Shown piece after piece: positions 5,584 through 31,041 of a stretch of 32,000 bases of DNA (position 1 is the first letter of the stretch; each line of letters opens with the position of its first letter). The position numbers and the translations under genes were made by a program. Source of the DNA: Nostoc sp. PCC 7120 = FACHB-418 (GTDB lineage: Bacteria; Cyanobacteriota; Cyanobacteriia; Cyanobacteriales; Nostocaceae); assembly GCF_000009705.1 (NCBI RefSeq), contig NC_003240.1, positions 60,001 through 92,000 of the forward strand, read 5' to 3'. The notes under the pieces are model-generated. The model made no database searches. It was given only the letters and a program-made list of their open reading frames with translations, and was not told the DNA's origin.

Positions 5584-5590
5584 CTTTAAC

Positions 5591-11105: not shown

Positions 11106-11130
11106 CAAAATACACTCATTATCAAAAAGC

Positions 11131-11170: not shown

Positions 11171-11183
11171 ACACATAAAAGAT

Positions 11184-11855: not shown

Positions 11856-11858
11856 TAA

Positions 11859-12554: not shown

Positions 12555-12595
12555 AAATATAAATTTGTCTTTATTAACCAACAGCAGAATATTAA

Positions 12596-14390: not shown

Positions 14391-14400
14391 AAAATTACAA

Positions 14401-14430
14401 ATCGCCTATGCAGTATAAATCATAGGCGAT
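14401..14430 (+). other. perfect 10-bp hairpin between ssb and the next ORF
   Basis: ATCGCCTATG, a 10-nt loop, then CATAGGCGAT. No T-run follows. Confidence 0.3.
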
Positions 14431-14463
14431 TAACCATCTAATCAATCTACAAATCAAACGACC

Positions 14464-14883
14464 ATGATTCATAATACTGCAACTATTAATCTTAAATCAG
14501 TGAACACAACCCACGACAAAGAAGGTTCCTTGATTGCTTTTGGGATTGCTGAATTCTACTACCGTTCCAAGGAAGGAGTCGTTACTGACGAGATACCATT
14601 CCGTTCCAAGGGCGCACCTGCTGTCGTTATCAACGAACAGGGGGAAGGCGTACATGGTACAGCAGAAGGATATCTTGATTTAGTGGTAGATAACAGGGGT
14701 GAGTACAAAGAAAAGATTGCCACATTCGTAATTAAAAACTTTATCTCAGCACAACCGATTAACGAACTTACCCAAGTTAGCAAAAACTCTCACTCGCCTG
14801 AAACTCCCGATTTTGCCAAGGAACTACTCGAAGATAACGTTACTTCGACAAATGAAGACCTAGACGAAGAACCTCCATTTTAG
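14464..14883 (+). CDS. hypothetical protein (139 aa) ending in an SSB-like acidic tip (DLDEEPPF)
   Basis: ORF directly downstream of ssb. Its C-terminus NEDLDEEPPF resembles the SSB interaction tip. Confidence 0.6.
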   Translation: MIHNTATINLKSVNTTHDKEGSLIAFGIAEFYYRSKEGVVTDEIPFRSKGAPAVVINEQGEGVHGTAEGYLDLVVDNRGEYKEKIATFVIKNFISAQPINELTQVSKNSHSPETPDFAKELLEDNVTSTNEDLDEEPPF

Positions 14884-14902
14884 AACCAACTAACTGAATA
14901 AT

Positions 14903-14948
14903 GCTAGTCCAGACAGGTTTACTGGTTTGAACTAGCGTTATTTTTTTC
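14903..14948 (+). terminator. rho-independent terminator
   Basis: A GCTAGTCCAG...CTGG...ACTAGC stem followed by a T8 run. Confidence 0.6.
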
Positions 14949-15020
14949 AAAAATCCAAAATAAAAATCCACTGTTTGGTAGAATCGCTGACATGGGTTCA
15001 CAAAATCGCTTCATTAATAT

Positions 15021-15791
15021 ATGTCATCAACCAAAATAATTGCCACTTTCAATCAGTCAGGTGGTGCAGCTAAGACAACTATTACACACAATCTTGGATA
15101 CCACCTTGCTAAAAAACATCGTGTACTGCTTGTGGATATGGACCCACAAGCATCACTAACAGCTTTTATGGGATTAGGAGAAGTCAAGCTGCAAACTGAA
15201 CAAACTATCTATGGCGCGATCGCTGAAGAAACTCCCCTCTATGTATGGGAAAAACCCATTTACGGGATGCACCTTGTGCCTACAAATATACAATTGGCAG
15301 GTACGGAGCAAAAAATTTTCCATGACCTGACCATCGACAACCGCCAACGGCTCAAGTTTGCACTCTCAAATGTACTTGACCAGTATGATTATATTTTGAT
15401 TGATTGTCCGCCTTCTCTAGGAATCCTAAGCATTATGAGCTTAGTAGCTGCTTCACACGTTATTATTCCTGTTGAGACACAATACAAGTGCTATCTTGGC
15501 ACCAATCAACTGCTAGAAACAATTGCCCGGCTTAAAAAAGGAGGACACCAGAAATTACAAATTGCCTGTATAATTCCAACCAAATACGATAATCGTAATC
15601 TTCAAGACACAGGAATACTGGAAGAAATTAAACAACAGGTTGAAGGACGGATACATGTTACTGCCCCCATTCCTAAATCAACAGCTTTTCCTGACGCAAC
15701 CCAAGCACATCTACCACTTGCACTCCACAAAAAAAACCACCCCGCAGTTAGCATACTCGAAGAAATCACAAAATATATCACTCAACTATGA
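15021..15791 (+). CDS. parA: ParA-family partition ATPase with a deviant Walker A lacking the signature lysine
   Basis: IIATFNQSGGAAKTTITHNLG (Walker A), LLVDMDPQ, ILIDCPPSLG. Its end overlaps the parB start by 4 nt. Confidence 0.9.
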   Translation: MSSTKIIATFNQSGGAAKTTITHNLGYHLAKKHRVLLVDMDPQASLTAFMGLGEVKLQTEQTIYGAIAEETPLYVWEKPIYGMHLVPTNIQLAGTEQKIFHDLTIDNRQRLKFALSNVLDQYDYILIDCPPSLGILSIMSLVAASHVIIPVETQYKCYLGTNQLLETIARLKKGGHQKLQIACIIPTKYDNRNLQDTGILEEIKQQVEGRIHVTAPIPKSTAFPDATQAHLPLALHKKNHPAVSILEEITKYITQL

Positions 15792-16735
15792 GCCAAAAAC
15801 GCGAACTAGAAAAACTCACCGGACTCGATAATTTATTTGGAGACGAAGAAGAACAATCCTTATCCGATTCCACTTTACCTTTATCCCAAATCATCCTTCC
15901 GCCGAGTCAGCCCCGTCGCTATTTTGACCCTGTAAAACTCAAATCGCTCGCCAACAGCATTAAGGAAGTGGGTTTATTAGAACCCATAGCCGTCAGAAAG
16001 ATTGAGGAAGACAAGTACGAACTTATCGCTGGTGAACGCCGTCTCAAAGCTTGTGAAATTGCAGGACTTGAGGAAATTTCTGTAGTCATTCTTGAATGTG
16101 ACGAGAAAAAAGCTCGCAAACTCCGCTTAGTTGAAAACCTCCAGAGGGAAGACCTCAACGCTTATGAGGAAACTATCGGAATTCTCGAACTACTTGCCGA
16201 AGAACTCGATCTTGACCAAGAAGCGGTGGTCTCTCTTCTATATCAGATGAATAATGAGACAAAAGGAAATTCTAACCATAACGTTATGGTTAGTGAAGAA
16301 GCACTTGCTATACAAACAATATTCCTCCAGATAGGCAAGATATCTTGGGAATCGTTTGTATCCAACCGCCTTCCTCTACTCAAACTTCCTCAAGATATCC
16401 AAATCACCCTTGAAAAGGGTCAAATCGAGTATACAAAAGCACAAGTGATTGCACGTATCAAGGATAATAAAAAGCGGCAAAATATTTTAAAAAAAGCTAT
16501 TGAAGAAAATCTGTCATTATCTGCAATCAAAGAGTTAGTGGGGGATATTCTCCCAATTCAATCAGAAAACAAGCCGCAGTCTCCCCAGCAACAAAATAAA
16601 GAAAGAGCAAGCAAAATATACAAATCACTGCTTAAGAGCAAAATCTGGGATGACGAGAAAAAAGTAAAAAAAGTTAATCGTCTTTTTGACCAAATTGAAG
16701 CACTTTTAGAAGAAAAGAAGGAGGATGCTTCTTGA
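15788..16735 (+). CDS. parB: ParB-family partition protein
   Basis: ParB-box motifs GLLEPIAVRK and YELIAGERRLKA. The C-terminus is charged. Confidence 0.9.
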   Translation: MSQKRELEKLTGLDNLFGDEEEQSLSDSTLPLSQIILPPSQPRRYFDPVKLKSLANSIKEVGLLEPIAVRKIEEDKYELIAGERRLKACEIAGLEEISVVILECDEKKARKLRLVENLQREDLNAYEETIGILELLAEELDLDQEAVVSLLYQMNNETKGNSNHNVMVSEEALAIQTIFLQIGKISWESFVSNRLPLLKLPQDIQITLEKGQIEYTKAQVIARIKDNKKRQNILKKAIEENLSLSAIKELVGDILPIQSENKPQSPQQQNKERASKIYKSLLKSKIWDDEKKVKKVNRLFDQIEALLEEKKEDAS

Positions 16736-16892: not shown

Positions 16893-18293
16893 TTAATGTG
16901 AGCGACGATATAGCATTTTAAATGGGTAAATAGAGCGAACGCTATCAAGTGGACGGACATCGAAAGGTAACTTAATAGTAAATGTGCTACCTTTACCAAA
17001 TTCACTTTGCACATCTATGCTGCCGTGATGTGCCAAAACAATTGCTTGGGCGATCGCTAATCCCAAACCAGAACCGCCAGTGCTACGAGAGCGATCGCTA
17101 TTGACTCGATAGAAGCGGTCAAAAATTTTAGTCAAATCATGCTGCGGAATACCAATACCCGTATCTTGAACCTGAATCACAGCATAATGGTCACTGCGAT
17201 CTAGGTAAACGGTTATCTTTCCTCCTTTTGGCGTGTATTGAATCGCATTGATAATTAAGTTAGAAAACAAGCGATAAAGCTGATCTGCATTACCAATAAC
17301 ATCCAAAGAAGTTGGCATCCGTACTGAAGATGTTAATGTTACATCAGATGCGATCGCCAAGGCTGCAAATTCCTCTATTAAGTCGTTAACAATATCATCC
17401 AAGCAGCAAATATCTCGTTGCATTGGCATTGGTTGACGATCCAGACGAGTCAGCAGCAACAAATCTGTAACCAGAGTTGTGAGTCGCTGATTTTGACGCT
17501 GTAGAGTTTGCAGAATGTCCCGTGCTTCTATTTCATCTATTTGGGGCATCAAAAGGGCTGATTCTACTGTCGCTTGTGTTGCTGCTAGAGGTGTCCGTAA
17601 TTCGTGTGCAGCATCTGCTGTAAATTGTTGAATTTGTCTATATGAGCGATAAATTGGCTGCATTGCTAACCCTGCTAACCACCAACTAGCAACACCAACC
17701 AGAGCCATTACCATTGGTAATCCCAATGCTAAAATGAGCTTCACAGCAACAAGATAACTGTTGAAGTCTGCCAGACTTCGCCCTACTTGAATGTAACCCC
17801 AATCACGATTGTCTTGGGTGTGTAGAACAAAAGAAATTTGGTGGTAGAAATGTCCTTTGCTGTCTTTCAGAGTTTGCCAAAGTTCCTTGTTAAAGGCTAC
17901 GGGTAATCCTTCTGGATAAGTTCCGGCTAGAGCAATCAAGCGTCCGGAATTATCGAAAAAACGCACATAATAATTACCTTGATTGATTGCGCTTAAAATA
18001 TGGCGTTTGGAACTTAACTGCTCTTGAATACAGCTTTTATCAACTACACAAATATTGGGTAAAAGCTGCTGTATAACTGGTTCTAATTCACCAGGTTGCT
18101 GTAATTTTAATTCAATACTGTCATGTAGTGTTCCGGCAACAGACTCCAGTTCTCGATCTAATGTCATCCAATGGGCATGGGAAATCGCTCTGTAGATACC
18201 AAATCCGCACAGGCTTAAAATCAAAGCCATAACGAGCGCATACCACAAGGCTAAACGCAGGCGGGTCTGCTTAAACAGTTTATTTTGATTCAT
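16893..18293 (-). CDS. sensor histidine kinase (two TM segments, periplasmic loop, HAMP, HisKA, HATPase)
   Basis: H-box [10 protein letters not shown]-box [11 protein letters not shown]-boxes DTGIGI and GGSGLGLAI. The start overlaps the response-regulator stop. Confidence 0.9.
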
Positions 18294-18994
18294 GGCGTGA
18301 GATTGAGACGATATCCTGTACCATGCAAAGTTTCAATCATATTCCCGCACCCACTGTTGGTTAGTTTGCGTCGCAGCAAACGCATTTGAGCAGCTACTAC
18401 ATTACTTATGGGTTCTGCACTCACTTCCCAAAGCTGATTACGAATTTGTTCAGTAGTTACAATTTGGTTTGGGTGTTTCATAAAATACTCTAGTAACTGG
18501 AATTCTTTATTAGTTAAGGAAATCTCCTGTTTCTTGCCTGTATTATTTTGACTAACAACCATATTGTTGCCGTAATCTAGAGTTAAGTTGCCAACAGTTA
18601 ATTCTTGGGGCTGAAATTGGGGCGATCGCCTCTGCAATGCCCGCAATCTAGCCAATAATTCAGCCATCCCAAATGGCTTTACCAAGTAGTCATCTGCACC
18701 CGCATCCAGCCCAGTCACTTTATCTTCCATTCTGTCTTTAGCTGTCAGCATTAAAACAGGTAGAGGACTTTGACGATAACGTAGCCTTTTGCATAACTCT
18801 AATCCTGATATTCCTGGCAACATCCAATCGAAAATAGCTAGCGTGTATTGTGTCCACTGATTTTCTAGATATGCCCAGGCATCATTACCATCGAGTACCC
18901 AATCAACTAAGTACTTCTGCTGGGTAAGAGTTCGCTTAATAGCAGCACCCAAATCTGGTTCATCTTCGACTAGTAACACTCTCATAGAGTTCAC
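18290..18994 (-). CDS. OmpR-family response regulator
   Basis: Receiver domain [11 protein letters not shown]...FDWMLPG...LMLTAK, then a winged-helix C-terminus ([13 protein letters not shown]...GTGYRL). Confidence 0.9.
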
Positions 18995-19221
18995 CTGTCA
19001 ACAGTAAGTTGATATCTTTTTAAAAACTTTTTCATCTGTACATTTATATAAAATTTAAGTATAAAATTTTACAGAATTTTTTTTGAAATAGCAAAATGTT
19101 AACAGTGAAAAAGGACTCAGTAGATTGACTTGCCAAAATAGGTGTGGTCTTAGTTTGAGGAGTTACAGAAACTAAGTATTTGCAAGAGTCTATTGAGTCA
19201 CTATTTATTTTGACAGGTAAA

Positions 19222-19239
19222 GATGAAACTAAGATGAAA
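19222..19239 (-). promoter_or_regulatory. direct-repeat box a (GATGAAACTAAGATGAAA on +), 228 nt upstream of the response-regulator gene
   Basis: Two heptamers with an 11-bp period. The strand given is that of the presumed target gene. The function is inferred, not shown. Confidence 0.5.
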
Positions 19240-19491
19240 TTCCAGCTATTTCCCGAAAATTTATAAACTGATTTATAAACTATTGGTGTTCATTGTCACA
19301 TCAAGAAAGTTCATTAGCATTATTTTTCTCATATTCGAGTTTGACGCTATACAAACAAACCCTCCATTAACTTAAGCTTCATCGTCATGCAAGCAATAGT
19401 GTATACAAAGCAAATCATGGAAGTCAATTTAATGACAATGAGAAAATCATAGCTACTGATTTTTGGAAATTATTTAAGACAATATCTGAAA

Positions 19492-19509
19492 TTTCATCTT
19501 AATTTCATA
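19492..19509 (+). promoter_or_regulatory. direct-repeat box b (TATGAAATTAAGATGAAA on the minus strand), 338 nt upstream of the PLP-enzyme gene
   Basis: Same 18-mer in the opposite orientation to box a, so it has the same orientation relative to its nearest gene. Confidence 0.45.
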
Positions 19510-19846
19510 TTTATCTTTCAGGATAGAAATATCGAGTCTATTCATGAATGAATACAGGCATTTCTGAGAATTGGCTTGAAAAAATAAACCTGTTAGATAT
19601 TGATTATTAACTAGGAGTGATGCCCCGTAAAGCTGACACACCAATTGCCATAGCACAAAAGCAAACCTACCAATAATTGGGGCGGCTGATTTAATCAGGT
19701 ATTCCAAGACATTTGTACATGACATCAAGTTTATTACAAATATCACTAAATTTAGGCTGTAAATACGACATAAGAGAGCTTTAGCAAGTAAGCAAGTTTA
19801 CAAAGTTGCAGCCACAGTAATTTCCTCATTTGTTTCAATATTCAAT

Positions 19847-20941
19847 ATGAATTCTTTTCCCAAAACTTTATCGTCCGAGAACTTTTCTAGTTCGCAATAC
19901 AACAATCGTAAGAGATACAATCTTTTTGTATCTGCCAATGTTACCCAGGCACTAGGAAATGTCCCGATCGTACAGCTTGGAAACATATCCCGTGTATGTA
20001 TTGAATCAGAGTGTTTATTAAAGCTTGAGAGCTGCAATCCTGGAGGATCAATTAAGGAGAAAAATGCAGTTTACCTCGTCAAGCGTGCGGAGGAAGAAGG
20101 ACTACTTGTACCTGGTGGTACGATTATCGAGTCAAGCTCAGGAAATTTCGGCGTTGGTTTAGCAATGGTAGGAGCAGTCCGAGGGTATCGAGTGATTATT
20201 GTTGTCGATGCCAAAACTGCGCCACCGTTTAGACGAATGCTGAAAGCATATGGTGCGGAACTTGTGGATGTACCGCTACATGAAGCAGACGAATCAGGCT
20301 CTATGCAAAAGGCGAGAATGAAACGAGCGCATGAGCTTACCGCAACTATCCCTAATGCTTGGTATCCATGTCAGCACTTGAATCCTTGGAATACTGAGGC
20401 ACATTCATACTACACTGCGCGGGAAATTGAAGCCCACTTTGCTGGTGAACTTGATGCTGTCGTGGTAGGTGTTAGCACGGCGGGACAAATAATGGGAATA
20501 GCTCGTTATCTCCTACCGCGATTTCCCAAAATACGTATTGTTGGCGTTGATGTGGTGGGTTCAGTGATTATGGGAACGCCAGCCAAACCATACAAGATGA
20601 CGGGTATTGGGTTATCTTTCTTTCCACCAAATCTGGATATTTCAATGCTCGATCGCGCTTACGTGATACCAGAGGATATGGCTTACTCGGTGTGTCATGC
20701 ACTTGCAAGTCGTGAAGGATTGCTTCTTGGTGCATCAACAGGGGCAATTGTCGCTGGTGGTTTGCATCTGGCGCGCTCTCTTGGTGCGGGTGCGCGGATT
20801 TTGATGATCAATCCAGACCGAGGGGATAGATACCTTGAGACAGTCTACGATTCCGATTGGCTTGATCATCATGGATTTACCTTGAAACAGGGGGAACATC
20901 TTGATGATGCGATCGCCTCACTGACTCCTCTGTATTTTTAG
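19847..20941 (+). CDS. PLP-dependent cysteine synthase / CBS-family beta-replacement enzyme
   Basis: LESCNPGGSIKEKNA (PLP-lysine motif) and ESSSGNFGVGLAMVGAVRGYRVIIV (Asn-loop region), with C-terminal GASTGA. It has a ~25-aa N-terminal extension relative to the usual CysK start. Confidence 0.8.
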   Translation: MNSFPKTLSSENFSSSQYNNRKRYNLFVSANVTQALGNVPIVQLGNISRVCIESECLLKLESCNPGGSIKEKNAVYLVKRAEEEGLLVPGGTIIESSSGNFGVGLAMVGAVRGYRVIIVVDAKTAPPFRRMLKAYGAELVDVPLHEADESGSMQKARMKRAHELTATIPNAWYPCQHLNPWNTEAHSYYTAREIEAHFAGELDAVVVGVSTAGQIMGIARYLLPRFPKIRIVGVDVVGSVIMGTPAKPYKMTGIGLSFFPPNLDISMLDRAYVIPEDMAYSVCHALASREGLLLGASTGAIVAGGLHLARSLGAGARILMINPDRGDRYLETVYDSDWLDHHGFTLKQGEHLDDAIASLTPLYF

Positions 20942-22302
20942 TGGCTCATCATAGATTAATGTTGAAAAAAATCATGAACATTTCACCTCAGCAGGGACAG
21001 GAAGGTAATAATACAGCTTCAGGGCGATCGCTACTAGCACTACTGAAGCAGTTTATTCCACTTTCCCTATCTGATGTGGCAATGACTCTCGGAGATCCGC
21101 TTCAGACATCTGCACTTAGCCGCCTATCTTTTCCGCAAGAGACATTAGCTGGAGTCGGGGTAGTCAAAGGAGTTGCCGTATTTCTGGAAAGCCCCATTAT
21201 CATGATTCTTCATGCCTCAACTGCACTGGGAGGCCAAGCTAAATCTCGTCGCGTACTTTGGCAGTTTACGGTAATTGCGGGACTAGCTCTGAGTGGTATC
21301 TTTCTGTTCCTCACTTGGAAACCCTTATATAACTGGCTACTGCTTGATTTATTCGGCGTTAGCTCATCAATCGCTGCACGAGGAAGAACTGCTTTTCTGC
21401 TAATGTTCCTGTGGCCTTTCGTGATTGCTTGGCGGCGATTCTTTCAAGGGTTACTGATCCGCGCTCACAAGAGCATAGCTGTAGGTTGGGCAAGTGTAGC
21501 GCGATTGACTTGGGTAATTGTGACGCTAGCAGTGGGAGTAAGTTTGAGGTTAGATGGCGCATTTTTAGCAGGTATCACCATGATGGGAGCAATACTCATT
21601 GAGGCGGTGCTGGTTACATGGTTTGGTCTACGTCTTGGTGCTATTTCTATTCTTAATCAACAAGGATATTCTGAAACTAAGAAACTGCCTCAAACCTTTG
21701 GTGAAGTTACCTTTTACTATCTTCCTTTAGCCTCAACCATGCTTTTGGTTTGGGGTGCAAGAGCAATACTCTTGAGTTTGATTGCACGCGCATTCGATGG
21801 TAGCATTGCACTTGCTGTTTGGCCTGCGGCCTGGGGGCTACTTCTTTCGATCGCTAACGGTACACGTATGATTCAACAAGTGGTAATTTCTGCTTATGAA
21901 GAAACTTCCAGGCGAACACTTGCTGCTTTTGTAATTATTGTCGGGTTAAGTTTTACTTTGATACCTTTTTTTCTGGGGTATACAGATCAAGGATTATTTT
22001 TACTGCGTCAGTTTTTGGGTAATAATCCCTCTCTTGTAAACGCATCTCGTCCAGTTATACAAATACTCTCATGTTTACCCCTGCTCTTGGCTCTGCAAAA
22101 TACTTTTCAAGGGCTACTGATTCACAAAGGCAAGAACTGGTTCATTAACTTGGCAACACTGGTTGCCGCAATCTTGACTTTAGTAGTATGCGGAACCCTA
22201 ATTTTTACCAGACATAGCGGAGCTAATTCAGCAGCTTATGGAATGCTTGCAGGTGTAATTGGTGAAATAATAGTGCTTTTTTTCGCGCTTCAGAGTAAAT
22301 AA
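20941..22302 (+). CDS. polytopic membrane protein, MATE/MOP-superfamily-like exporter (tentative)
   Basis: About 12 hydrophobic segments, and an N-terminal region resembling the MATE pattern (FIPLSLSDVAMTLGDPLQT...LAGVGVV). The GTG at 20941 overlaps the upstream TAG; ATGs at 20959 or 20974 are alternative starts. Confidence 0.5.
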   Translation: MAHHRLMLKKIMNISPQQGQEGNNTASGRSLLALLKQFIPLSLSDVAMTLGDPLQTSALSRLSFPQETLAGVGVVKGVAVFLESPIIMILHASTALGGQAKSRRVLWQFTVIAGLALSGIFLFLTWKPLYNWLLLDLFGVSSSIAARGRTAFLLMFLWPFVIAWRRFFQGLLIRAHKSIAVGWASVARLTWVIVTLAVGVSLRLDGAFLAGITMMGAILIEAVLVTWFGLRLGAISILNQQGYSETKKLPQTFGEVTFYYLPLASTMLLVWGARAILLSLIARAFDGSIALAVWPAAWGLLLSIANGTRMIQQVVISAYEETSRRTLAAFVIIVGLSFTLIPFFLGYTDQGLFLLRQFLGNNPSLVNASRPVIQILSCLPLLLALQNTFQGLLIHKGKNWFINLATLVAAILTLVVCGTLIFTRHSGANSAAYGMLAGVIGEIIVLFFALQSK

Positions 22303-22324
22303 TTGGATTAATTTTGACTAGCAA

Positions 22325-22798
22325 CTATGGCACTATTAACACGGAACAAAAAGCATGATGAAGCAGATAGTTGCTAACACGACCTAAAACAAATTCTTCT
22401 ATAGTAGAAAGCCAACGCCGCCGTCCAATTACAATCAAGTCTGCTTGCCAATTCCGAGCAAATTCACAAATGGTTTCGCCAGGTTGACCAACGTGTTGTT
22501 TGTATTCTACTTCTACACCTGCTGCTGTTGCTTCTGTTGTATATAAATGCAGCATCTCTAACTTTGGCTGGGAGAATTTATCTAACATTTTTTGGCTGTG
22601 TTGTGCAGCTTCACTGTCTTTATCGGGATCATAGTAATTTAAAATGTCAGTAGTATCTAGATATCCCTCTTCTTCAGGACATAAAACGTTAAATATCATA
22701 AGGTTAGCCTTTGTGAGTTTTGCCAGAGCAAGTGCTTTTTCAAAAACACGCTTGCTAACTTTAGAACAGTCTATTGCCACTAAAATTTTCTGAAACAT
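22325..22798 (-). CDS. universal stress protein family (UspA)
   Basis: MFQKILVAIDCS...ADLIVIGRRR...GRVSNYLLHHAFCSVLIV. Confidence 0.85.
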   Translation of the reverse strand: MFQKILVAIDCSKVSKRVFEKALALAKLTKANLMIFNVLCPEEEGYLDTTDILNYYDPDKDSEAAQHSQKMLDKFSQPKLEMLHLYTTEATAAGVEVEYKQHVGQPGETICEFARNWQADLIVIGRRRWLSTIEEFVLGRVSNYLLHHAFCSVLIVP

Positions 22799-22813
22799 AA
22801 AAAACTCCTTATC

Positions 22814-23509
22814 TTATTCCATACGCACAATATCTCTCATTCCTAGCCAGTTATAGCGTCGAATCAACCAAGGCAACACTATAATTACAATGAGGAAAAT
22901 AACAGAAATAGCCATTCCTAAAGGTGTTCCTACGCTTAATGCTTCTCCCATATATGTCAGCAAAAATGTTGAAGGAATCATACCTAAAAACGTAGCAATT
23001 GCATATTTAGGGAAAGAAAGACCAGCTATTCCCGCAGCATAGCTAATCAAATCAAAAGAAAATATTGGCAACATCCGAGTAATAAAAATTAACCAGCTAA
23101 GATAGGTCTCTCCTTTGTTTTTTGAGAAATAAATGATTTTACCTGTTAAAGCTTTAATTGCCGATCGCCCCAAAGTTCGTCCCAAAAAATAAGCAATTAA
23201 ACCACCTAGAAAACCTCCTATGATGCTGTAAACTCCTGCCATGAATGTCCCCCAAATAGTGCCAGCTATAACTGCGAGTGGCGCACTGGGAATAGGACTA
23301 ATAACTACAGATAAAGCCAAGATACCAATATAGACAAATGGGCCAAGTAACCCTAAATTTTTTACAGTTTGTCTAAATCCTTCTGGTGTTAATAAATTCA
23401 ACTGGGGATTCAATAGCCAATAACAGACGGCTAAACATAGGAGCAAAATTGCCAACCCAAAGGCGTTTTGACGATTAAACAGGATTTTGATTCTTTCCTG
23501 TCTTTTCAC
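22814..23509 (-). CDS. DedA / TVP38-TMEM64 family membrane protein
   Basis: VISPIPSAPLAVIAGTIWG...GGFLGGLIAYFLGRTLGR is typical of this family. Confidence 0.75.
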   Translation of the reverse strand: MKRQERIKILFNRQNAFGLAILLLCLAVCYWLLNPQLNLLTPEGFRQTVKNLGLLGPFVYIGILALSVVISPIPSAPLAVIAGTIWGTFMAGVYSIIGGFLGGLIAYFLGRTLGRSAIKALTGKIIYFSKNKGETYLSWLIFITRMLPIFSFDLISYAAGIAGLSFPKYAIATFLGMIPSTFLLTYMGEALSVGTPLGMAISVIFLIVIIVLPWLIRRYNWLGMRDIVRME

Positions 23510-23530
23510 TTACTTAGTTCTCCCAATATT

Positions 23531-24184
23531 TTAGGTATTACTTCTCTTGGTGCTGTCTCCCAGACGAGGGAAAAAAGCTGGTGTATTGCTGGCATAGCGA
23601 TCGTACTCTTCGCCAAATTCTGCTCGTACCTCACGTTCTTCTTGGCGTGCTAGTCGTGTATACATCCACACCAGCACCGGAAACATCAATAATGTGAGAA
23701 TTGTCGGCCACTGAAGCAAAAAACCAAACATGATACTGATAAAAGCTAGATACTGGGGATGGCGAATTGTTGCATAAGGGCCAGTAGTAGCTAATGTGTG
23801 AGAACGCTGGGCTTTGTACAGAACCTCCCAAGCTGATGCCAATAAGATAAACCCACCAAAAATGAGGATGTTACTCAAAATATGCAACACATTAAAGTGA
23901 GGATTGCCTTTCATACCCAGCATTGTCCACCAGAGATGTCCTACATCATGGGAAAGTAAATCCAACTTTGGATAGCGGCTTTGCAACCAACCTGAAAGTA
24001 GGTAAATTGTTAAAGGTATGCCGTACATTTCAGTGAACAAAGCCATGATAAAGGCAGAAAAAGCACCAAAGGCTCGCCAATCACGGGGACTTTTTGGTTT
24101 TGTAAAGCTGAAGGCAAAGATAATAAATACCAAAGAGTTGATAATCACCAAAGACCAAAGACCGTAGGCGGGTGCGTTGTTCAT
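23531..24184 (-). CDS. isoprenylcysteine carboxyl methyltransferase (ICMT/PEMT)-like membrane methyltransferase
   Basis: TTGPYATIRHPQYLAFISIMFG motif in a multi-TM protein. Confidence 0.75.
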   Translation of the reverse strand: MNNAPAYGLWSLVIINSLVFIIFAFSFTKPKSPRDWRAFGAFSAFIMALFTEMYGIPLTIYLLSGWLQSRYPKLDLLSHDVGHLWWTMLGMKGNPHFNVLHILSNILIFGGFILLASAWEVLYKAQRSHTLATTGPYATIRHPQYLAFISIMFGFLLQWPTILTLLMFPVLVWMYTRLARQEEREVRAEFGEEYDRYASNTPAFFPRLGDSTKRSNT

Positions 24185-24211
24185 TTCTTATTTCCTGTTG
24201 ATTGATATTTT

Positions 24212-24442
24212 TTACCGAGATGAACGATCATTTCCGTCACTGTGTCCGCCGTGTCCACCATGTCCTCCGTGCATAAATAAGTGCATGAATGGGCAGGCTA
24301 AAAGTAACAAGTAGGGGAGAATTCCAGCTAGATGTGCTAAGTGTTCAGTGATGAGAAAAAATGCAGCAATGGCCAGGAAAATATATAAGGCTATTTTGGC
24401 GGGCGATCTCCACCAACTATCTTGACTAGATTGATGATTCAT
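24212..24442 (-). CDS. DUF2933-like small membrane protein with a His-Gly repeat
   Basis: Two TM segments, then FMHLFMHGGHGGHGGHSDG. This type of protein commonly accompanies heavy-metal ATPases. Confidence 0.65.
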   Translation of the reverse strand: MNHQSSQDSWWRSPAKIALYIFLAIAAFFLITEHLAHLAGILPYLLLLACPFMHLFMHGGHGGHGGHSDGNDRSSR

Positions 24443-24477
24443 AGAATTTTTCCCCCAATCCAGTTAACAATTGCAAT

Positions 24478-26652
24478 TCAATTTGTTGACAATTTGAATC
24501 CTTTCAACAGTGATGAATTAACAATCACTGACAAGGAACTCAAAGCCATCGCAGCTGCGGCAATCATTGGGTTGAGTAAACCGAAGGCAGCAATGGGAAT
24601 GCCAATGGAGTTGTAAATAAATGCCCAAAATAGGTTTTGTTTAATTTTGAGCATCGTGGCACGAGATAGGCGAATTGATGTGACAACATCGCGCACATCG
24701 TTTTTAACCAGAATGATGCCGCCTGTTTCCTTGGCCACATCTGCACCAGAACCAATAGCAATCCCAATGTCAGCAGTTGCTAAGGCTGGTGCATCATTAA
24801 CACCATCTCCCACCATTGCCACAACTTCGCCACGTCGTTGAATATCTTTAACGACTTGGGCTTTATCACCGGGTAATACCTCAGCAATTACCTTATCGAT
24901 TCCTAGTTGACGAGCGATCGCTTCGGCAGTACGCTGGTTATCTCCAGTGAGCATCACAACTTTGACCTTTTCCCGACGCAAAGCAGCGATCGCTTCCTTG
25001 GCTTCAGGTTTGATGGTGTCGGCTACTGCTACAATCCCCATCAACAAACCATTACAACCAACCAGCATGGCTGTTTTACCATCAGATTCCAGACGAGTCA
25101 ATATCTCTTCTGTTGCCGGATTTATTTGATAGCCTTGCTCGCGGAACAAGCGGCGATTACCCAGCAAAATCCTATCTCGATTAATTGCTCCCCGAATCCC
25201 ATGTCCGGGAATTGCCTCAAAATTACTCACCTTGGGAATATCTAGCCTCTGATGTCTGGCTGCTCGCACAATTGCTTCACCCAAAGGATGTTCTGAACCC
25301 GCTTCTACCGCCGCCGCCAACCGCAGAATTTCATCGTTTGGGCGTTCTGCCAAGGGTACAATATCCGTCACACTAGGCTCACCACGAGTCAAAGTTCCAG
25401 TTTTGTCGAAAATTACGGTAGAGAGCTTTTCAGCTCGTTCTAAAATTTCACCACCCCGAATCAAAATCCCGCCTTCTGCTCCCTTACCCACACCAACCAT
25501 CAACGCGGCGGGAGTAGCAATACCCAAAGCACAGGGACAAGAAATAATTAACACAGCAATAAATGCCAGTAAAGCTTGCGGAAAGTTCCCGACAAGTAAC
25601 CAACCGAGAAATGCCAGTACCGCAATTCCCACAACCGCAGGCACAAAATAACCCGTCACTTTATCTGCCAACCGTTGGACTTGAGCCGTACTTGTCTGGG
25701 CTTCCTCCACAATTTTGATGATTTGAGCTAAAGCCGTTTCCGCCCCCACACGAGTCGCCCGAAAACGGAAAAGTCCGGTTCTGTTTAAAGTACCACCAAT
25801 CACCGCAGATTCGGCTTGCTTCTCTACTGGTAGTGACTCCCCTGTCAGCATTGACTCATCTACAGATGAAGATCCATCCAGCACAATTCCATCCGTCGGT
25901 ACTTTTTCTCCCGGACGGACAACAACTGTTTCATCCACCATTAATTGCTCTGCCGGAATTTCCATCTCCATACCATCTCGGATGACTCTGGCGGTGGCAG
26001 GTTTTAAATCTAGAAGTTTGCGTACTGCTGCCGATGAGTTCTTTTTGATAATTTCTTCCATATACTTGCCTAGTAAAACAAAGGCAATGACGACGGCAGA
26101 AACTTCAAAATAAACGCTACGTTCCTCAACTCCAACAGGTAGAGCATTAGGAAAGAAAATCACTGCCACACTATAGAAATAGGCAACACTGGTTCCTAAA
26201 GCAATCAGGAAATCCATGTTTACATTGCGGCTTTTGATGGCATTCCACGCTCCCACGTAAAATGACCAGCCACCAATGAACTGTACAGGGGTAGCCAGGA
26301 TAAAAAGCCAGACTCCCCAAGTGAACCAGGGTAGAGCAGAAATCGGCACCCAGCTTAAGATACTTACACCAGCTGCCAGTCCCAAAAATGCAGCCGCTCG
26401 CAGAATTGCTAAAAATAGTACCCCCGTCATCGCAATGGTGACGCGAGTCCGCATTGATTTAAGTTCCTTCTCAGGATCTAAAAATGTGTTTAAGCAAGTT
26501 TGGCTGCAAAAATAGTAATTGCGTCCACCTCTTTCTGTCTTCAAGGATGTGGCTTTAGGTACTGTCATGCCACAAATAGGATCTTTCGCCATCCCACCTT
26601 GAGGTACAATGCTTGCGTGTCTATGTCCGTGATGCTCGTGAGTTCTTGCCAT
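24478..26652 (-). CDS. P1B-1-type Cu(I)/Ag(I)-translocating P-type ATPase with a His-rich and YHS/TRASH N-terminus
   Basis: CPC (IISCPCALG), [17 protein letters not shown]7 YNSIGIP (YN-x4-P) and TM8 MALSSLS (M-x2-SS). The N-terminus has HEHHGHRH and DPICGMTV...YYFCSQTC. Confidence 0.95.
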
Positions 26653-26668
26653 TTTTGAATGAACTCCT

Positions 26669-26845
26669 TCATCCTGCTGGTTGTGATTTAAAAGTATGCA
26701 GCCAAGTCTGGCTGCAAAAATAGTAAGTCTGTCCGTCTCGCTCGGACTTCAATGCTGTAGCCTTTTCTACAGTCATGCCACATATTGGGTCTACAGCAGT
26801 CTTTTCACTATCTTGTTGACGCTTGCGTCTAAAAAAATTCCACAT
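26669..26845 (-). CDS. unannotated 58-aa YHS/TRASH-domain protein (below the ORF-track size cut-off)
   Basis: Hand translation gives [58 protein letters not shown]. It closely parallels the ATPase N-terminus. An AAGGAG before the ATPase ATG lies just after its stop. Confidence 0.7.
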
Positions 26846-26901
26846 AATTGACCTCCTTGAGAGCAGATGTCAATCCTGTCAGGTCAAAATCTCCCCGGAA
26901 T

Positions 26902-27603
26902 TTAACTTTCTTCGGGGTTGGATTTATACCAAGCCTGATACCACTGCTGCATCTGGTTAATTTCAGCTGTTTGAGTTTTAATGATGGACTGAGCTAAGTT
27001 ACGAATTTCTGGTTTGGTAGCTTTTTTAGTAGCCATCTGCGACATCATTAGAGCCATGCGATGATGAGGAATCATCTGACGGATAAATTCTTTGTCGAAA
27101 TCTGGTGCATTTTTCAAGGCTGCCAAATCTACATTCATACCCATCATGTTGCAGTTCATCGGCATTTTCATCATGCCTGGGTTCATCTGTTGGCACATAC
27201 GCTGATGCCTTGCCATCATGCCTTGATGATTCATGGCTGTTGCAGGTACTTCTTTCCCGTACCATGCCTTGTACCAAGTTTTCATTTGCTGAATTTCGCG
27301 GTTTTGTTCTTGTTTAATAGCTTGAGCTAGCTTTTTAATTTCTGGGCGTTGAGCGCGACTTAATGCGATATCAGCCATTTCCATTGCTTGAGTGTGATGA
27401 GGAACCATCATTTCAATGAAATGTTGATCCATATTAGTCATCATCCTTCTTTGGGGAGGAGGACTAGTTTCTGTAGATGGGTGATGAGTATTGTGTTCTG
27501 AGTTTGAAACCTGTGCTTGTGCGTTATTTAAAATTACTAATCCAGCGAGCGTACTACTGGTTAATAGACCAGCTAAGCCATAAAACAATGTTTTTGTCTT
27601 CAT
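26902..27603 (-). CDS. DUF305 periplasmic metal-binding protein (CopM-like)
   Basis: Signal peptide, then two internal repeats (FIEMMVPHHTQAMEMA... and FIRQMIPHHRMALMMS...) and a Met-rich linker (MNPGMMKMPMNCNMMGMN). A GAGGTGG Shine-Dalgarno precedes the ATG. Confidence 0.8.
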   Translation of the reverse strand: MKTKTLFYGLAGLLTSSTLAGLVILNNAQAQVSNSEHNTHHPSTETSPPPQRRMMTNMDQHFIEMMVPHHTQAMEMADIALSRAQRPEIKKLAQAIKQEQNREIQQMKTWYKAWYGKEVPATAMNHQGMMARHQRMCQQMNPGMMKMPMNCNMMGMNVDLAALKNAPDFDKEFIRQMIPHHRMALMMSQMATKKATKPEIRNLAQSIIKTQTAEINQMQQWYQAWYKSNPEES

Positions 27604-27845
27604 AACCCCACCTCATTTTAGGAGTTAAACACAACTTATATTTATGAAATTATCGAGAGATTGTGAGGAACTTGTGAGATAAAAAATATTCGATTAACTC
27701 AATGAAATTGTGCAAATAGAAAGCGGTAATCACGGCTTTTTAAAGCTTTACTTTCTTGAAATAATTAAGCTAATTTTCTTTCCAACCACTTAGTTAGATA
27801 TTTCTATCTTCCATAAAATCCTATACTTTAAGCTTTTCACCTAGA

Positions 27846-27863
27846 GATGAAAAGAGGATGAAA
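27846..27863 (-). promoter_or_regulatory. direct-repeat box c (GATGAAAAGAGGATGAAA on +), 243 nt upstream of the DUF305 gene
   Basis: Same 11-bp-period heptamer pair as boxes a and b. It is the only box upstream of the long minus-strand operon. Confidence 0.5.
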
Positions 27864-28019
27864 TATTTTTTATGTACACCTTTCTTTACAAATCAAGGCG
27901 ATAGCAAAGGACTGCTTTCAGTAGATGATATCTTCGTTAGTGTCGTAATAGATGCGATGGTCTCCGAATCTACCGTGGGCGATCGCGCTTTTTGGCATTT
28001 GTGTAACATCCATGCCTAC

Positions 28020-28275
28020 TTAATTAAGGGATTGTCCCACATCGACTGCTAGCAATTGGTCATGAGTTGCTTTACCAGTCAACACTAGTACCCCGTTGAT
28101 GGCGATTGCTTGCATTGACTGAACTCCATACTGTTCAACTTTCGCTAGATAAGTCTGCTGCTCCTAAACTGAACACAAGTCATCAACTAATACTTCACAA
28201 TTTGAGCCAGCTAGTTCTTACGCTGTGCAAACTGTATCCTCACAAAGAGGGCAATTAGCTATAAATATCTGAATT
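28020..28275 (-). pseudogene. decayed thioredoxin-fold (CxxC) gene with in-frame stops
   Basis: Hand translation of the minus strand gives QIQIFIANCPLCEDTVCTA*ELAGSNCEVLVDDLCSV*EQQTYLAKVEQYGVQSMQAIAINGVLVLTGKATHDQLLA...SLN*. No ATG start is evident. Confidence 0.4.
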
Positions 28276-28486
28276 TGACATTTATTTTGCCATAATGTTG
28301 ACCAATAATTACCTTACTAGTATTTTCAATCCTCCATTTACCAGGAGAGTCAAGTCTAAACAATACAATATTAATAATTTGTAATAAATTTAATTTTTTC
28401 TTCTGACAGCAAGGAAATGAAGAAGTTACTGTTAGAAAAAATGCAGCAACCGCATAAATTGACTTTTTCATAACTAACTCTGGCAA
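28259..28486 (-). CDS. 75-aa ORF whose signal peptide resembles those of the neighbouring paralogs (possible remnant)
   Basis: MKKSIYAVAAFFLTVTSS resembles MKKLIYAAAFTLVFASS of the 28586-29062 gene, including at the nucleotide level over the first ~30 nt. The rest has no similarity. Confidence 0.25.
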   Translation of the reverse strand: MPELVMKKSIYAVAAFFLTVTSSFPCCQKKKLNLLQIINIVLFRLDSPGKWRIENTSKVIIGQHYGKINVKFRYL

Positions 28487-28585
28487 GATGATATAGGGTA
28501 GGCAAAATCCACTATCCCACCCTACAGCTACCGATTAATTTGGTTGACAGCAAGCCACACCTAAAATTAACAGCAGTTACTCACC

Positions 28586-29062
28586 TTAGCCACCGTAAGT
28601 CTGAATCCGAGCTAAACCAAGTGGAATTTCTTCTTTCATATCAATCTTTTTGACAGATACGGGATAATGCCAAGTTCCCTCATAATCTGGAGTCTTAACT
28701 CCTTTCATACGAATTGATATAGTTGTACCAGGAACTACTGGTTCGGAAAAAGCTACAGTAGCTTTTTTGTTGTTAATAGAAACCGTTGTAGGAATTTTTT
28801 GACCTAATTTGTTTTGGACTTCAATTCCTTTATCAATACTTATTCCTTCTGGTAAATCAATCGCCAATTCTGAAAGTGCTTTACCTTGGACATGAACATC
28901 AAATTTATGAGTAGCATCTGGGATACGGGCATCATTAGGAACAGCAGCACTATTACCTAGATGAGAAATATTAGCATCATTTGGATTTTTAGCCCAAGCA
29001 GTAGAAACTGAAGATGCAAAAACTAAGGTAAAAGCAGCTGCGTAAATCAGCTTTTTCATCAA
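28586..29062 (-). CDS. secreted protein, paralog 1 (DUF2808-like, tentative)
   Basis: Signal peptide ending in AWA, an AAGGAG Shine-Dalgarno, and the shared C-terminal pattern ...EIPLGLARIQ. Confidence 0.7.
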   Translation of the reverse strand: MMKKLIYAAAFTLVFASSVSTAWAKNPNDANISHLGNSAAVPNDARIPDATHKFDVHVQGKALSELAIDLPEGISIDKGIEVQNKLGQKIPTTVSINNKKATVAFSEPVVPGTTISIRMKGVKTPDYEGTWHYPVSVKKIDMKEEIPLGLARIQTYGG

Positions 29063-29225
29063 TATTCTCCTTATTTAGTTAACCAATGAACTATCTCTAT
29101 AGGAATCCGACTTGAGTCTTGCTATGTATACTGAGAAGCCAAACCTTATTTGACAGGCTTTCAGTTAGGTTGACTTTTCAACAATCAAATGGGATTTCTA
29201 TATATTTATAATTATGAAAGCTATT

Positions 29226-29243
29226 GATGAAATCAAGATGAAA
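29226..29243 (-). promoter_or_regulatory. direct-repeat box d (GATGAAATCAAGATGAAA on +), 164 nt upstream of paralog 1
   Basis: Exact heptamer pair with an 11-bp period. Confidence 0.5.
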
Positions 29244-29350
29244 TATTGTTATGTCAAGGGAAATTTAAAATGTAGTTATTAAACGTAATTATTCAAAATT
29301 GTTTCTGATTGAACTATTAAATATCTAAATTTAAAAGCAACTTAAAATTC

Positions 29351-29388
29351 TCCTGATAGTTAACTCAAAAATCAGTTAACTATCAGGA
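29351..29388 (-). terminator. terminator hairpin after paralog 2
   Basis: Perfect 15-bp stem TCCTGATAGTTAACT / AGTTAACTATCAGGA with an 8-nt loop, flanked by T/A runs on both strands. Confidence 0.65.
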
Positions 29389-29411
29389 ATTTTATTTGGA
29401 TAGCGAAGATT

Positions 29412-29900
29412 TTAAGGACTAATACGAAACCTAGCTACACCTATAGGTATTTTTGCATCACTACCAATGAGATTAGCAGATAAATAATAAACAGGGCCAT
29501 TACCAAGAAATGGTTGTTTGACATTCTTAATGTCAATCTCTAGCTTACTGTTAGGAGCAACTGGTTCAGCAAAAGCTAGTAGTATAGTCTTACCATTCAA
29601 AGAAACATTAGCGTTAATTTTTTGACCATTCTCTTTGTTTACAACAACATCATTAATATCATTGCTCCACCTTACAGTACTTGGAACTTCAATATTTAAC
29701 TGCGAAACATCTTTACTATTTTTAGGAACGTGTACTCGCAAAGTATGTCTAACAACCGCCCAGCGAGTCGGAGGAAATTGATAGTTACCCTCAACATGAG
29801 GAAGACTATCATTTTCTTCATTGGCACTTGCATAGTTGGCAGAAATTAAAAATGCAGCAGCTAGAGTAGATATAGCAATGTAAGCTAGCATTTTTTTCAT
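29412..29900 (-). CDS. secreted protein, paralog 2 (DUF2808-like, tentative)
   Basis: MKKMLAYIAISTLAAAFLISANYASA signal peptide; the ATG at 29900 has an AGGAG Shine-Dalgarno. HTLRVHVPKNSKDVSQLNIEVPSTV...KIPIGVARFRI aligns with paralog 3. Confidence 0.7.
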   Translation of the reverse strand: MKKMLAYIAISTLAAAFLISANYASANEENDSLPHVEGNYQFPPTRWAVVRHTLRVHVPKNSKDVSQLNIEVPSTVRWSNDINDVVVNKENGQKINANVSLNGKTILLAFAEPVAPNSKLEIDIKNVKQPFLGNGPVYYLSANLIGSDAKIPIGVARFRISP

Positions 29901-30116
29901 ATTTACTCCTAATTTAATCAGTAACATCAGCAAATATTCAGATTCGTGTTTAGTAAGCCGTTATCAACTAATACATAACAACTAGGTAAAGACAGAATTA
30001 TCTATCTCCTACATTCACACAAGAATCAAGAGAAGTTAAAAGCCTTCTCATTAACTTGTTTACTGTTTTAAGTCAAAAAGGCCTACTACCTTTATTGATC
30101 AAGTTTGGCAGGTCTT

Positions 30117-30134
30117 AATGAAATCTGGATGAAA
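30117..30134 (-). promoter_or_regulatory. direct-repeat box e (AATGAAATCTGGATGAAA on +), 217 nt upstream of paralog 2
   Basis: Heptamer pair with an 11-bp period. It shares the flank TTTGGCAGG-N4 with boxes a and f. Confidence 0.5.
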
Positions 30135-30161
30135 TTTTTGATTAACATAAAAATCTACATA

Positions 30162-30625
30162 TTAAAATGTAGGGAATTTAGCTAAACCAATAGGAATTTC
30201 TACCTCACTGCCAACAACTTTCACTGAAAAGCGGTATACAGAATCCGGGCCTGTAACTGGTTGTTGAACTTTATTAAAATTAACTAAGAGCTTAGTGTTA
30301 GAAATAACCTTTTCAGGGAACTCTATAATAATTTGTCTGCCATTGGCGGAAATATTAGTATTAATTTTCTGATCATTCACATCCAAGACATCAATATCAT
30401 TACTCACTGCTACAGTAGATGGAGTTTCAATAATAAGTTGAGAAAGAGCGTTGTTATTTTTGGGGATATTTAACCGAAAAGTATGTTTTACAAAACGCCA
30501 GCTATTAGTAGGATATTGCAAATTATTATCAACATAGTCTCCTTAGCATTTGCCTTAGTCATGCAAATGAAAGCTATAGTGCCAAGAGCAAATACTGTAC
30601 CTGTGTAAATCCATATTTTCTTCAT
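30162..30625 (-). pseudogene. paralog 3 (DUF2808-like), with its signal peptide and mature domain in different frames
   Basis: The ATG at 30625 encodes MKKIWIYTGTVFALGTIAFICMTKANA, and that frame stops at 30488-30490. The domain frame (GDYVDNNLQYPTNSWRFVKHTFRLNIP...) is closed by a TAA at 30543-30545. The frames switch near 30539-30550. Confidence 0.6.
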
Positions 30626-30709
30626 CTTGAATTGTGAAACAACCATTATGTAAAATAAGTTACAATTTTCTACTGAATAGACCTTTACATAATAAGTTTG
30701 ACATGTCAG

Positions 30710-30727
30710 GATGAAATTAGGGTGAAA
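30710..30727 (-). promoter_or_regulatory. direct-repeat box f (GATGAAATTAGGGTGAAA on +), 85 nt upstream of paralog 3
   Basis: Heptamer pair with an 11-bp period. In the gene direction a TATTAT follows it 15 nt later. Confidence 0.5.
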
Positions 30728-30967
30728 TTTTGACTAGTTCAAAAAATAATTTGGTGATGTTGTGATAGTTAGCTAAACCTGAACTAGAACTTTAGTTACT
30801 GCAACAAAAAATTCAATATTTTCAGTCTCAAGAACTAACAAGATCGTGGAAATCAGTTGTGGATGATATTAAAAAATCAGGCTTTTAGTTGTAAAAGTAC
30901 AATTAAAAGTCCGATTCTGCATCAAAGCATAAGTATAAAAGGCTCAATAATAGTATAGAGACATCAA

Positions 30968-30985
30968 AGTGAAATTAAGATGAAA
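30968..30985 (-). promoter_or_regulatory. direct-repeat box g (AGTGAAATTAAGATGAAA on +), with no obvious target ORF
   Basis: Heptamer pair with an 11-bp period. In the minus direction a TATACT follows it 10 nt later. Confidence 0.4.
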
Positions 30986-31041
30986 ATTGAGCATGACTAA
31001 AGAGAAAATTAGTGTTTACTATCATTCACCCGAACAAATTA

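Follow-up and report, generated by a model that had tools for sequence, protein, structure and literature searches.

The window considered here is a stretch of 32,000 nucleotides from Nostoc sp. PCC 7120 (contig NC_003240.1, forward-strand positions 60,001 to 92,000), and all coordinates are counted from its first nucleotide. Between 19222 and 30985 it contains seven 18-bp direct-repeat boxes, termed a to g. These lie near genes for an OmpR/PhoB-type response regulator and a sensor histidine kinase, and ahead of genes for a pyridoxal phosphate (PLP) enzyme, a secreted DUF305 protein and three secreted DUF2808 proteins. Comparison with other cyanobacteria suggests that the boxes are operators of a metal-stress regulon.

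Direct-repeat boxes of the window

Read towards the gene, all seven boxes have the form TTTCAYC-N4-TTTCAY. The pattern RRTGAAA-N4-GRTGAAA has six exact matches on the + strand, where 0.01 are expected from shuffles of the window. The looser RTGAAA-N4-GRTGAAA gains box b on the − strand and gives seven matches against 0.40 expected, a number reached by none of 100 shuffles. A position weight matrix was derived from the seven boxes, which score 23.8–27.4 bits with it; the runner-up site in the window has 13 bits, and the top score in the replication half is 12.3 bits. A first-pass annotation of this DNA had listed the seven boxes, reported none in the replication half and described one uniform orientation towards the nearest gene. 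Every box is indeed found where it was placed, and the other two statements are borne out by the matrix scores and by the gene-ward reading.

The distances from box to start codon are approximately 227 nt (a), 337 nt (b), 242 nt (c), 163 nt (d), 183 nt (e), 84 nt (f) and 343 nt (g). The range of 85–340 nt given earlier agrees with these values; box g has no gene of its own. The regulator and PLP-enzyme genes are 852 bp apart, and boxes a and b are situated back to back in between. Box b is inside a mechanically called open reading frame (19474-19746) and box c touches another (27858-28052). Neither reading frame is annotated in the 215-kb conjugative plasmid of Tolypothrix sp. PCC 7712/7601, to which the window is 95% identical, and boxes b and c can therefore be considered intergenic in practice. 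With that qualification for b and c, the earlier description of all boxes as intergenic can stand.

Regulator and kinase

The response regulator (18290..18994, − strand; likely start codon ATG at 18985) has the Pfam domains Response_reg and Trans_reg_C and belongs to the CopR/RppA family. It scores 420 bits with the NCBIfam RppA equivalog NF041734 (cut-off 250) and is 66.5% identical to the plasmid copy of Synechocystis CopR, slr6040. The recognition helix SNVVAAQ(M/V/I)RLLRRKL is common to the window regulator, Synechocystis CopR and a second paralog on the Tolypothrix plasmid, and it differs in an unrelated OmpR-type regulator of that plasmid. The closest match to the regulator (97%) is on a contig of Hydrococcus rivularis NIES-593, assigned as a unicellular pleurocapsalean, and the other close matches are all from Nostocales; either plasmid transfer or a mixed culture may account for this.

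The sensor histidine kinase (16893..18293, − strand) is of the CopS/RppB family and has HisKA, HATPase_c and ArlS_N sensor domains. Its gene overlaps the regulator gene by 4 nt. The protein scores 765 bits with the NCBIfam RppB model NF041735 (cut-off 400) and is 53% identical to CopS (slr6041) over its full length, the periplasmic part included.

The genes slr6040 and slr6041 are the plasmid copies of Synechocystis CopR and CopS (PMC4284471). The names RppA and RppB given by the NCBI pipeline are misleading here, because the pipeline applies the same names to this pSYSX pair. The equivalog label makes no distinction between the nickel/redox system RppA-RppB (sll0797/98) and the copper system CopRS.

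Anatomy of the predicted promoters

A logo was made from 83 sites, dereplicated on the downstream 45 nt. The box consists of A at position 0, TTTCATC, y-T-r-A and TTTCAT at positions 12–17, i.e. two ATTTCAT half-sites at positions 0–6 and 11–17 that form tandem direct repeats with an 11-bp period. A second conserved block follows, with T25 and G26 (69/83), A29 (75/83), and C32 and T33 (73/83). Information is approximately zero bits before position 0 and after position 45, and the flanks therefore provide an internal control for shared ancestry.

By its sequence, the TGn-NAnnnT block at positions 25–33 is an extended −10 signature. It is separated from the box by 7 nt, and the −10 hexamer begins 9–10 nt after the box, which puts the box at about −39 to −22. 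In the window, NAnnnT is present after all seven boxes, at positions 28–33 or, for box g, 29–34, and the upstream TG accompanies boxes a, c, e and f. Such an arrangement would be that of a PhoB-like activator, with the box in place of the −35 element and at a fixed short distance from the −10.

A scan for consensus −35/−10 (sigma-70) promoters found no pair overlapping any box, and promoter-like sites were not above shuffles. A positional scan for TAnnnT downstream of the box gave only a weak peak at 15 nt, formed by 12% of the sites; the position-by-position logo that replaced it exposed the extended −10. The TTTGrCAkG flank that the first-pass annotation saw at boxes a, e and f is genuine, and is the reverse complement of the conserved TGyCAAA(c/a)T extended −10. 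Of the −10-like hexamers proposed at the same time, TATACT fits box g, but the others are farther downstream, where the weak TAnnnT peak is the only trace of conservation.

Box a (19222..19239, − strand; 26.2 bits) reads TTTCATCTTAGTTTCATC towards the gene and is the predicted promoter of the regulator-kinase operon. Its extended −10 is TGTCAAAAT (19207-19215, − strand; hexamer CAAAAT), with a predicted start at ~19198-19200. The same arrangement is found upstream of the regulator gene in 18 other matches of the 82-locus survey described below. Box b (19492..19509, + strand; TTTCATCTTAATTTCATA; 25.5 bits) is the predicted divergent promoter of the operon encoding the PLP enzyme and a membrane protein (19847..22302), with the −10 hexamer CAGGAT at 19519-19524 on the + strand and a predicted start at ~19531-19533. 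Box c (27846..27863, − strand; TTTCATCCTCTTTTCATC; 24.6 bits) is the predicted promoter of the DUF305/CopM-like gene; its extended −10, TGAAAAGCT (27831-27839, − strand; hexamer AAAGCT), predicts a start at ~27822-27824.

Boxes d, e and f are the predicted promoters of DUF2808 paralogs 1, 2 and 3, respectively, and all are on the − strand. Box d (29226..29243; TTTCATCTTGATTTCATC; 27.4 bits) has the hexamer CATAAT at 29211-29216 (− strand) and a predicted start at ~29202-29204. Box e (30117..30134; TTTCATCCAGATTTCATT; 23.8 bits) is followed by the extended −10 TGCCAAACT (30102-30110, − strand; hexamer CAAACT; predicted start ~30093-30095), and box f (30710..30727; TTTCACCCTAATTTCATC; 26.1 bits) by TGTCAAACT (30695-30703, − strand), also with the hexamer CAAACT and with a predicted start at ~30686-30688.

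Box g (30968..30985, − strand; TTTCATCTTAATTTCACT; 24.5 bits) is an orphan or a distal tandem promoter. Its −10 hexamer, TATACT (30952-30957, − strand), is 1 nt farther from the box than in the other six and gives a predicted start at ~30943-30945. The box is 57 nt past the stop codon of a TPR gene, box f is another 240 nt downstream, and no open reading frame of at least 60 amino acids was found between boxes g and f. The sole gene within its reach is the third DUF2808 gene, already served by box f. Box g is part of a 175-bp stretch (30840-31014) in place of which the Tolypothrix plasmid has 1.6 kb with a hypothetical gene, and the box with its flank weakly resembles regulator promoters of other Nostoc loci. 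Tandem boxes ahead of one gene are seen at other loci of the survey. For the third DUF2808 gene, box g may act as a distal tandem promoter; alternatively, it may be a recombination remnant.

Genes downstream of the boxes

The first gene of the box b operon (19847-20941, + strand) encodes a PLP enzyme of the cysteine-synthase/SbnA family. SbnA is its best model, at 296 bits and under the cut-off of 350, and the protein resembles cysteine synthases and cystathionine beta-synthases to about the same degree. The second gene (20941-22302, + strand) encodes a 453-amino-acid membrane protein that is ANKH-like, with a weak match to ANKH. The gene pair and its box are conserved together at other loci.

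The secreted DUF305 protein (26902..27603, − strand) matches Pfam DUF305 and the NCBIfam CopM domain, and is 43% identical to Synechocystis CopM. Downstream of its gene is that of a P1B-type copper ATPase with an N-terminal YHS domain and a CPC motif (24478..26652, − strand; TIGR01511, 610 bits), which has no box of its own in the matrix scan. On the − strand, the gap between the two genes contains a hairpin (26716-26697) and a consensus-like promoter, TTGACA-18-AATTAT (26873-26844). Judging from these elements, transcription of the ATPase gene may start at a constitutive promoter of its own or be subject to attenuation. It is uncertain whether this gene and the four that follow it belong to the box c unit.

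The approximately 720 bp from box c to the first DUF2808 gene (27864-28585) contain short mechanical reading frames only (64 and 75 amino acids) and the HIP1 site GCGATCGC, and nothing is annotated in the sister plasmid counterpart. This region may be a decayed gene.

The three DUF2808 paralogs all match Pfam DUF2808 and are all on the − strand: paralog 1 (28586..29062), paralog 2 (29412..29933) and paralog 3 (30162..30646). The proteins have a signal peptide, and modelling of paralog 1 predicts with confidence (predicted local distance difference test, pLDDT, 85.5) a nine-strand beta-sandwich. Fold matches in the Protein Data Bank (PDB) are generic Ig-like adhesin domains; the copper protein YcnI is among them, with template modelling (TM) scores of 0.55/0.65, and does not stand out. 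The family has one single nearly invariant His. Because the YcnI match is undistinctive and there is this one residue alone, no metal site is claimed for DUF2808. A family member in Anabaena, All7597, was found in the exoproteome (PMC10957091). All7597 is also up under Cd stress, and the metal clusters of the Anabaena alpha plasmid are co-induced.

Paralog 3 is frameshifted by a 1-nt deletion near 30536. One A is lost (ACTAATG to ACTATG) relative to the intact Tolypothrix gene, and the signal peptide (reading frame 30488-30646) is split from the remainder of the protein (30162-30521). The gene is either a pseudogene or the product of a sequencing error. Just past the stop codon of paralog 2 there is a near-perfect palindrome with a 16-bp stem and T-runs on both strands (29350-29389). 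It has the look of a bidirectional terminator and would insulate the paralog units from one another.

Conservation of the box

A search with the regulator in one genome per species gave 80 Nostocales loci, with regulators 83–97% identical and 1.49 Mb of sequence. In these, 147 sites match the matrix of the window boxes with at least 20 bits; five second-order Markov simulations of equal length gave 0, 0, 0, 0 and 1. The distribution of match scores is bimodal, with 112 in the 25–27-bit bins and few at 14–19.

Together with the Tolypothrix and Synechocystis loci, the survey comprises 82 loci, and 141 of 155 matches are outside called open reading frames. When the box is read as TTTCAT and the next gene within 500 nt is counted, DUF305 is the commonest (37), followed by DUF2808 (34), a CopB-like RND adaptor (25; the cluster takes in Synechocystis CopB), the regulator (18) and the PLP enzyme (8, to which a Leptolyngbya ortholog can be added). 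Rarer next genes are those of an RND pump (4), two unnamed secreted families (5 each), an OprB/SLH porin (2) and DUF411 (1). Loci that seem to lack a box at the 20-bit threshold have a 16.9-bit version ahead of an RND operon whose last gene is that of the regulator.

The whole Tolypothrix plasmid (214,777 bp) was assembled from six pieces and scanned. All 13 matches of at least 20 bits are in one contiguous metal island that spans the record origin (195.3–207.5 and 2.6–38.7 kb), and there is none in the other ~156 kb, which consists of conjugation, replication and other genes. It had been proposed earlier that the motif should not occur at similar density in unrelated intergenic DNA of the genome, and at the level of this replicon the expectation is confirmed. 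Boxes of the island also precede CDF, RND, MFS and DUF305-RND units, up to 38.7 kb.

In several orders other than Nostocales, rppA genes likewise have this box in their neighbourhood. In Oscillatoria PCC 7112, three boxes precede three DUF2808 genes upstream of rppAB, and in Leptolyngbya boryana the genes behind the box are two for DUF2808 proteins, one of the cysteine-synthase family and one for a sigma factor. Acaryochloris, which has two rppAB pairs side by side, has the box before an RND adaptor gene and a cobalt transporter gene. Plasmid pANL of S. elongatus has a weaker box before rppA and DUF305.

Comparison with known systems

The closest known system is the likewise plasmid-borne CopRS of Synechocystis sp. 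PCC 6803 (Hik31/Rre34; copMRS, copBAC), which shares with the window the TTTCATC-N4-TTTCAT box, the recognition helix and a DUF305/CopM target. On pSYSX, the copM promoter has the box TTTCATCCTGATTTCATT 49 nt before the start codon (26.1 bits) and the copB promoter the box TTTCATCTTGGTTTCATA (23.5 bits); both sites are outside the training set of the matrix. The copM (TGCCAGACT) and copB (TGAAACACT) promoters fit the same frame of box and −10, and share TGnnAnACT downstream. From the predicted start, the copM leader would be ~27 nt long and include the ribosome-binding site. Direct binding of CopR to the promoters of both copM and copB has been reported (review, PMC4284471), and direct repeats in PcopM are credited to Giner-Lamia 2012 (as cited in PMC4890671). 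The window differs from Synechocystis in that the regulator-kinase pair is predicted to form its own autoregulated operon and is not part of a copM-R-S operon, and in that there is a P1B ATPase instead of copBAC. It has seven predicted promoters against two, much longer leaders, and the three DUF2808 genes and the PLP-enzyme/membrane-protein operon as additional targets. In the literature searched, no explicit box sequence for CopR or NrsR was found.

A second point of reference is the pho box of E. coli, CTGTCAT-A(A/T)A(T/A)-CTGTCA(C/T), which is bound by PhoB ~10 bp upstream of the −10, where it replaces the −35 element. Like the window box, it has two 7-bp direct repeats with an 11-bp period, an A/T-rich 4-bp spacer and the same orientation to transcription, and T-TCAT is common to the half-sites. 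The half-sites differ, however, being ATTTCAT in the window and CTGTCAT in E. coli, and the regulators belong to different subfamilies and respond to different signals; the window regulator is under the NCBIfam PhoB cut-off (188 bits vs 296).

The proteobacterial CusR/CopR/PcoR systems are similar to that of the window in being copper-responsive OmpR-type two-component activators of efflux and periplasmic copper proteins. Their copper box is a palindrome-like site and not an 11-bp direct repeat, and the window regulator is below the heavy-metal cut-off of TIGR01387 (172 bits vs 279). The HLR1 site of RpaB, (G/T)TTACA(T/A)(T/A) twice with a 10-bp period, is also a T-rich direct repeat of a cyanobacterial OmpR-type regulator with a CA core, but its half-site and spacing differ from those of the box. 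HLR1 is not enriched in the window (18 matches vs 24.8 expected).

Synechocystis RppA/NrsR resembles the window pair in being OmpR-type, linked to metal efflux and autoregulated, and the NCBI RppA/RppB models name the proteins of the window. The published motif of RppA (sll0797) is AAMAWCTCYYWCCCC (Yu et al. 2025, as cited in PMC13421787). The first-pass annotation had proposed a comparison with published boxes; the copM and copB promoters carry the box, and the RppA motif is unrelated to it. Membership in the sll0797 regulon, as represented by that motif, is not supported, AAMAWCTCYYWCCCC being absent from the target promoters.

A probable plasmid-borne metal-stress regulon

The most satisfactory interpretation, and a strongly favored one, is that the boxes are operators of cyanobacterial CopR/RppA-family regulators and define a plasmid-borne metal-stress regulon, most likely for copper. 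In the genomes compared, the box appears to be tied exclusively to this regulator family. The suggestion made earlier, that an OmpR/PhoB regulator, here of the CopR kind, uses these boxes as operators to control its own operon and the DUF305, DUF2808 and PLP-enzyme units, is strongly supported by comparison: the identities of regulator (66.5%) and kinase (53%) to CopR and CopS, the same recognition helix, the boxes of copM and copB, and the recurrence of the box with this regulator family across cyanobacterial orders, ahead of the same families of genes, all point to it.

The following mechanism can be envisaged. The CopS-like kinase would sense a periplasmic metal and phosphorylate the regulator. 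A head-to-tail dimer of the regulator on the two half-sites, instead of a −35 element, would then recruit RNA polymerase as PhoB does. The regulator would activate its own operon via box a (positive feedback), the divergent PLP-enzyme/membrane-protein operon via box b, the CopM-like DUF305 gene via box c, possibly with the copper ATPase operon, and the three secreted DUF2808 paralogs via boxes d, e and f. By homology, the signal is likely to be copper.

Several observations weigh against this interpretation. The predicted leaders in the window are long, about 45–300 nt, and an Rfam scan of the window for riboswitches or small RNAs in these leaders gave no match. Box g has no target gene of its own. 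Boxes a to g cannot be assigned to the adjacent regulator alone, because the second paralog shares the recognition helix. The equation of the box with the published CopR repeats rests on the pSYSX sequence and on secondary citations. Lastly, AAMAWCTCYYWCCCC is unrelated to the box and has in the window one match with two mismatches, vs 1.38 expected; this single near-match is not close to any box-flanked gene. The earlier claim that this one regulator controls all the units cannot be told apart from control shared with a paralog, and box g is an orphan or a distal tandem promoter.

Among alternatives, the most serious concerns the signal, which might be another metal (Ni, Co, Zn, Cd or Ag) or an envelope or redox cue unrelated to metals. 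This is judged unlikely, although it is the alternative with the greatest weight. The NCBI name RppA/RppB is that of the nickel system NrsRS in Synechocystis, which is also redox-linked; a cobalt-transporter gene of Acaryochloris has the same box upstream; a DUF2808 protein of Anabaena, All7597, responds to Cd; and CDF, MFS and RND genes are preceded by boxes on the Tolypothrix plasmid. Copper is nevertheless favored by the similarity of the pair to CopR/CopS, the sole reference pair compared, by the CopM-type DUF305 protein among the targets, and by the adjoining copper-type P1B ATPase with its CPC motif and YHS domain.

It is also conceivable, although improbable, that the boxes are genuine CopR/RppA operators whose main or joint regulator is another paralog on the replicon, with several kinase-regulator pairs cross-wired through one common box. 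The second rppA of Tolypothrix is 69% identical to the regulator, has the same recognition helix and is located ~6 kb past the window end. It is part of a DUF2808-rppA operon with its own box, which adjoins a PcxA/group-2 sigma factor unit that also has its own box. The adjacent rppAB pairs of Acaryochloris and the copper induction of nrsBAC in Synechocystis are in keeping with such cross-wiring. On the other side, the adjacent regulator has its own box a, and the divergent box b shares that intergenic region; boxes also occur at loci where 20 kb contain no more than one rppA; and one regulator alone is visible in the window.

A somewhat smaller chance still is given to the possibility that TG-N2-A-N3-T is a third, degenerate half-site or the site of another factor, and that the true −10 is one of the A/T-rich hexamers that the first-pass annotation placed downstream. 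CTGTCAA does resemble a PhoB-type half-site, and the small TAnnnT peak 15 nt after the box would fit a more distal −10. The block is, however, an exact fit to an extended −10 (TG, 1 nt, and NAnnnT with the two most conserved −10 positions), and its distance to the second half-site is 13 bp instead of 11 bp. A more distal −10 in Synechocystis copM, moreover, would place the start inside the ribosome-binding site.

Gene duplication might also have multiplied a single promoter or small repeat element, with no regulator in common. This reading can be rejected, despite the paralogous genes behind boxes d, e and f and the recombined look of the box g stretch: outside the box and −10 the flanks are devoid of information, and the genes that follow the box are not homologous. 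The box is also conserved from Synechocystis to Nostocales, always beside the same regulator family.

A broader proposal can be advanced tentatively, at somewhat less than an even chance. Several paralogous CopS/CopR-type pairs may share one operator and thus form a cross-wired, plasmid-borne multi-metal network in filamentous cyanobacteria, with a conserved core that, in addition to CopM and RND pumps, includes DUF2808, the PLP enzyme/ANKH-like exporter and group-2 sigma factors. If so, the secreted DUF2808 proteins would for the first time be placed in a functional context, that of metal stress at the envelope or outside the cell. The SbnA/cysteine-synthase-like PLP enzyme and the ANKH-like exporter would possibly make and export a thiol or amino-acid-derived metal ligand.

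Already known from Synechocystis are the type of box, the family of the regulator and CopM as a target. CopRS is well characterized in Synechocystis only (2025 review, PMC12292863), and the roles of the Anabaena homologs all7583/84 and all7605/06 are described as unknown (PMC12282138). The comparison adds three new points as predictions: the extent of the regulon, with seven promoters in this window and 13 or more on the Tolypothrix plasmid; further conserved members, namely DUF2808, sigma factors and the pair of PLP enzyme and exporter; and a defined extended −10 geometry. The CopRS-type regulon would thereby be extended to Nostocales plasmids, and the misleading automatic label RppA/RppB corrected to a CopRS-type system.

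The operator model, A-TTTCATC-yTrA-TTTCAT, 7 nt, TGn-NAnnnT, can be used to search for the regulon in any cyanobacterial genome and yields predicted transcription starts that can be checked directly. The tie of the DUF2808 family and the PLP-enzyme/exporter pair to metal stress gives both testable roles. The boxed promoters are also candidate metal-inducible expression tools for filamentous cyanobacteria.

Replication half of the window

The replication half (1-16735) encodes SSB and ParA/ParB. The annotation of the sister plasmid lists DNA polymerase III subunits of its own (dnaN, dnaX and holA), a 3′-5′ exonuclease and a primase-polymerase, an uncommon set of genes for a plasmid.

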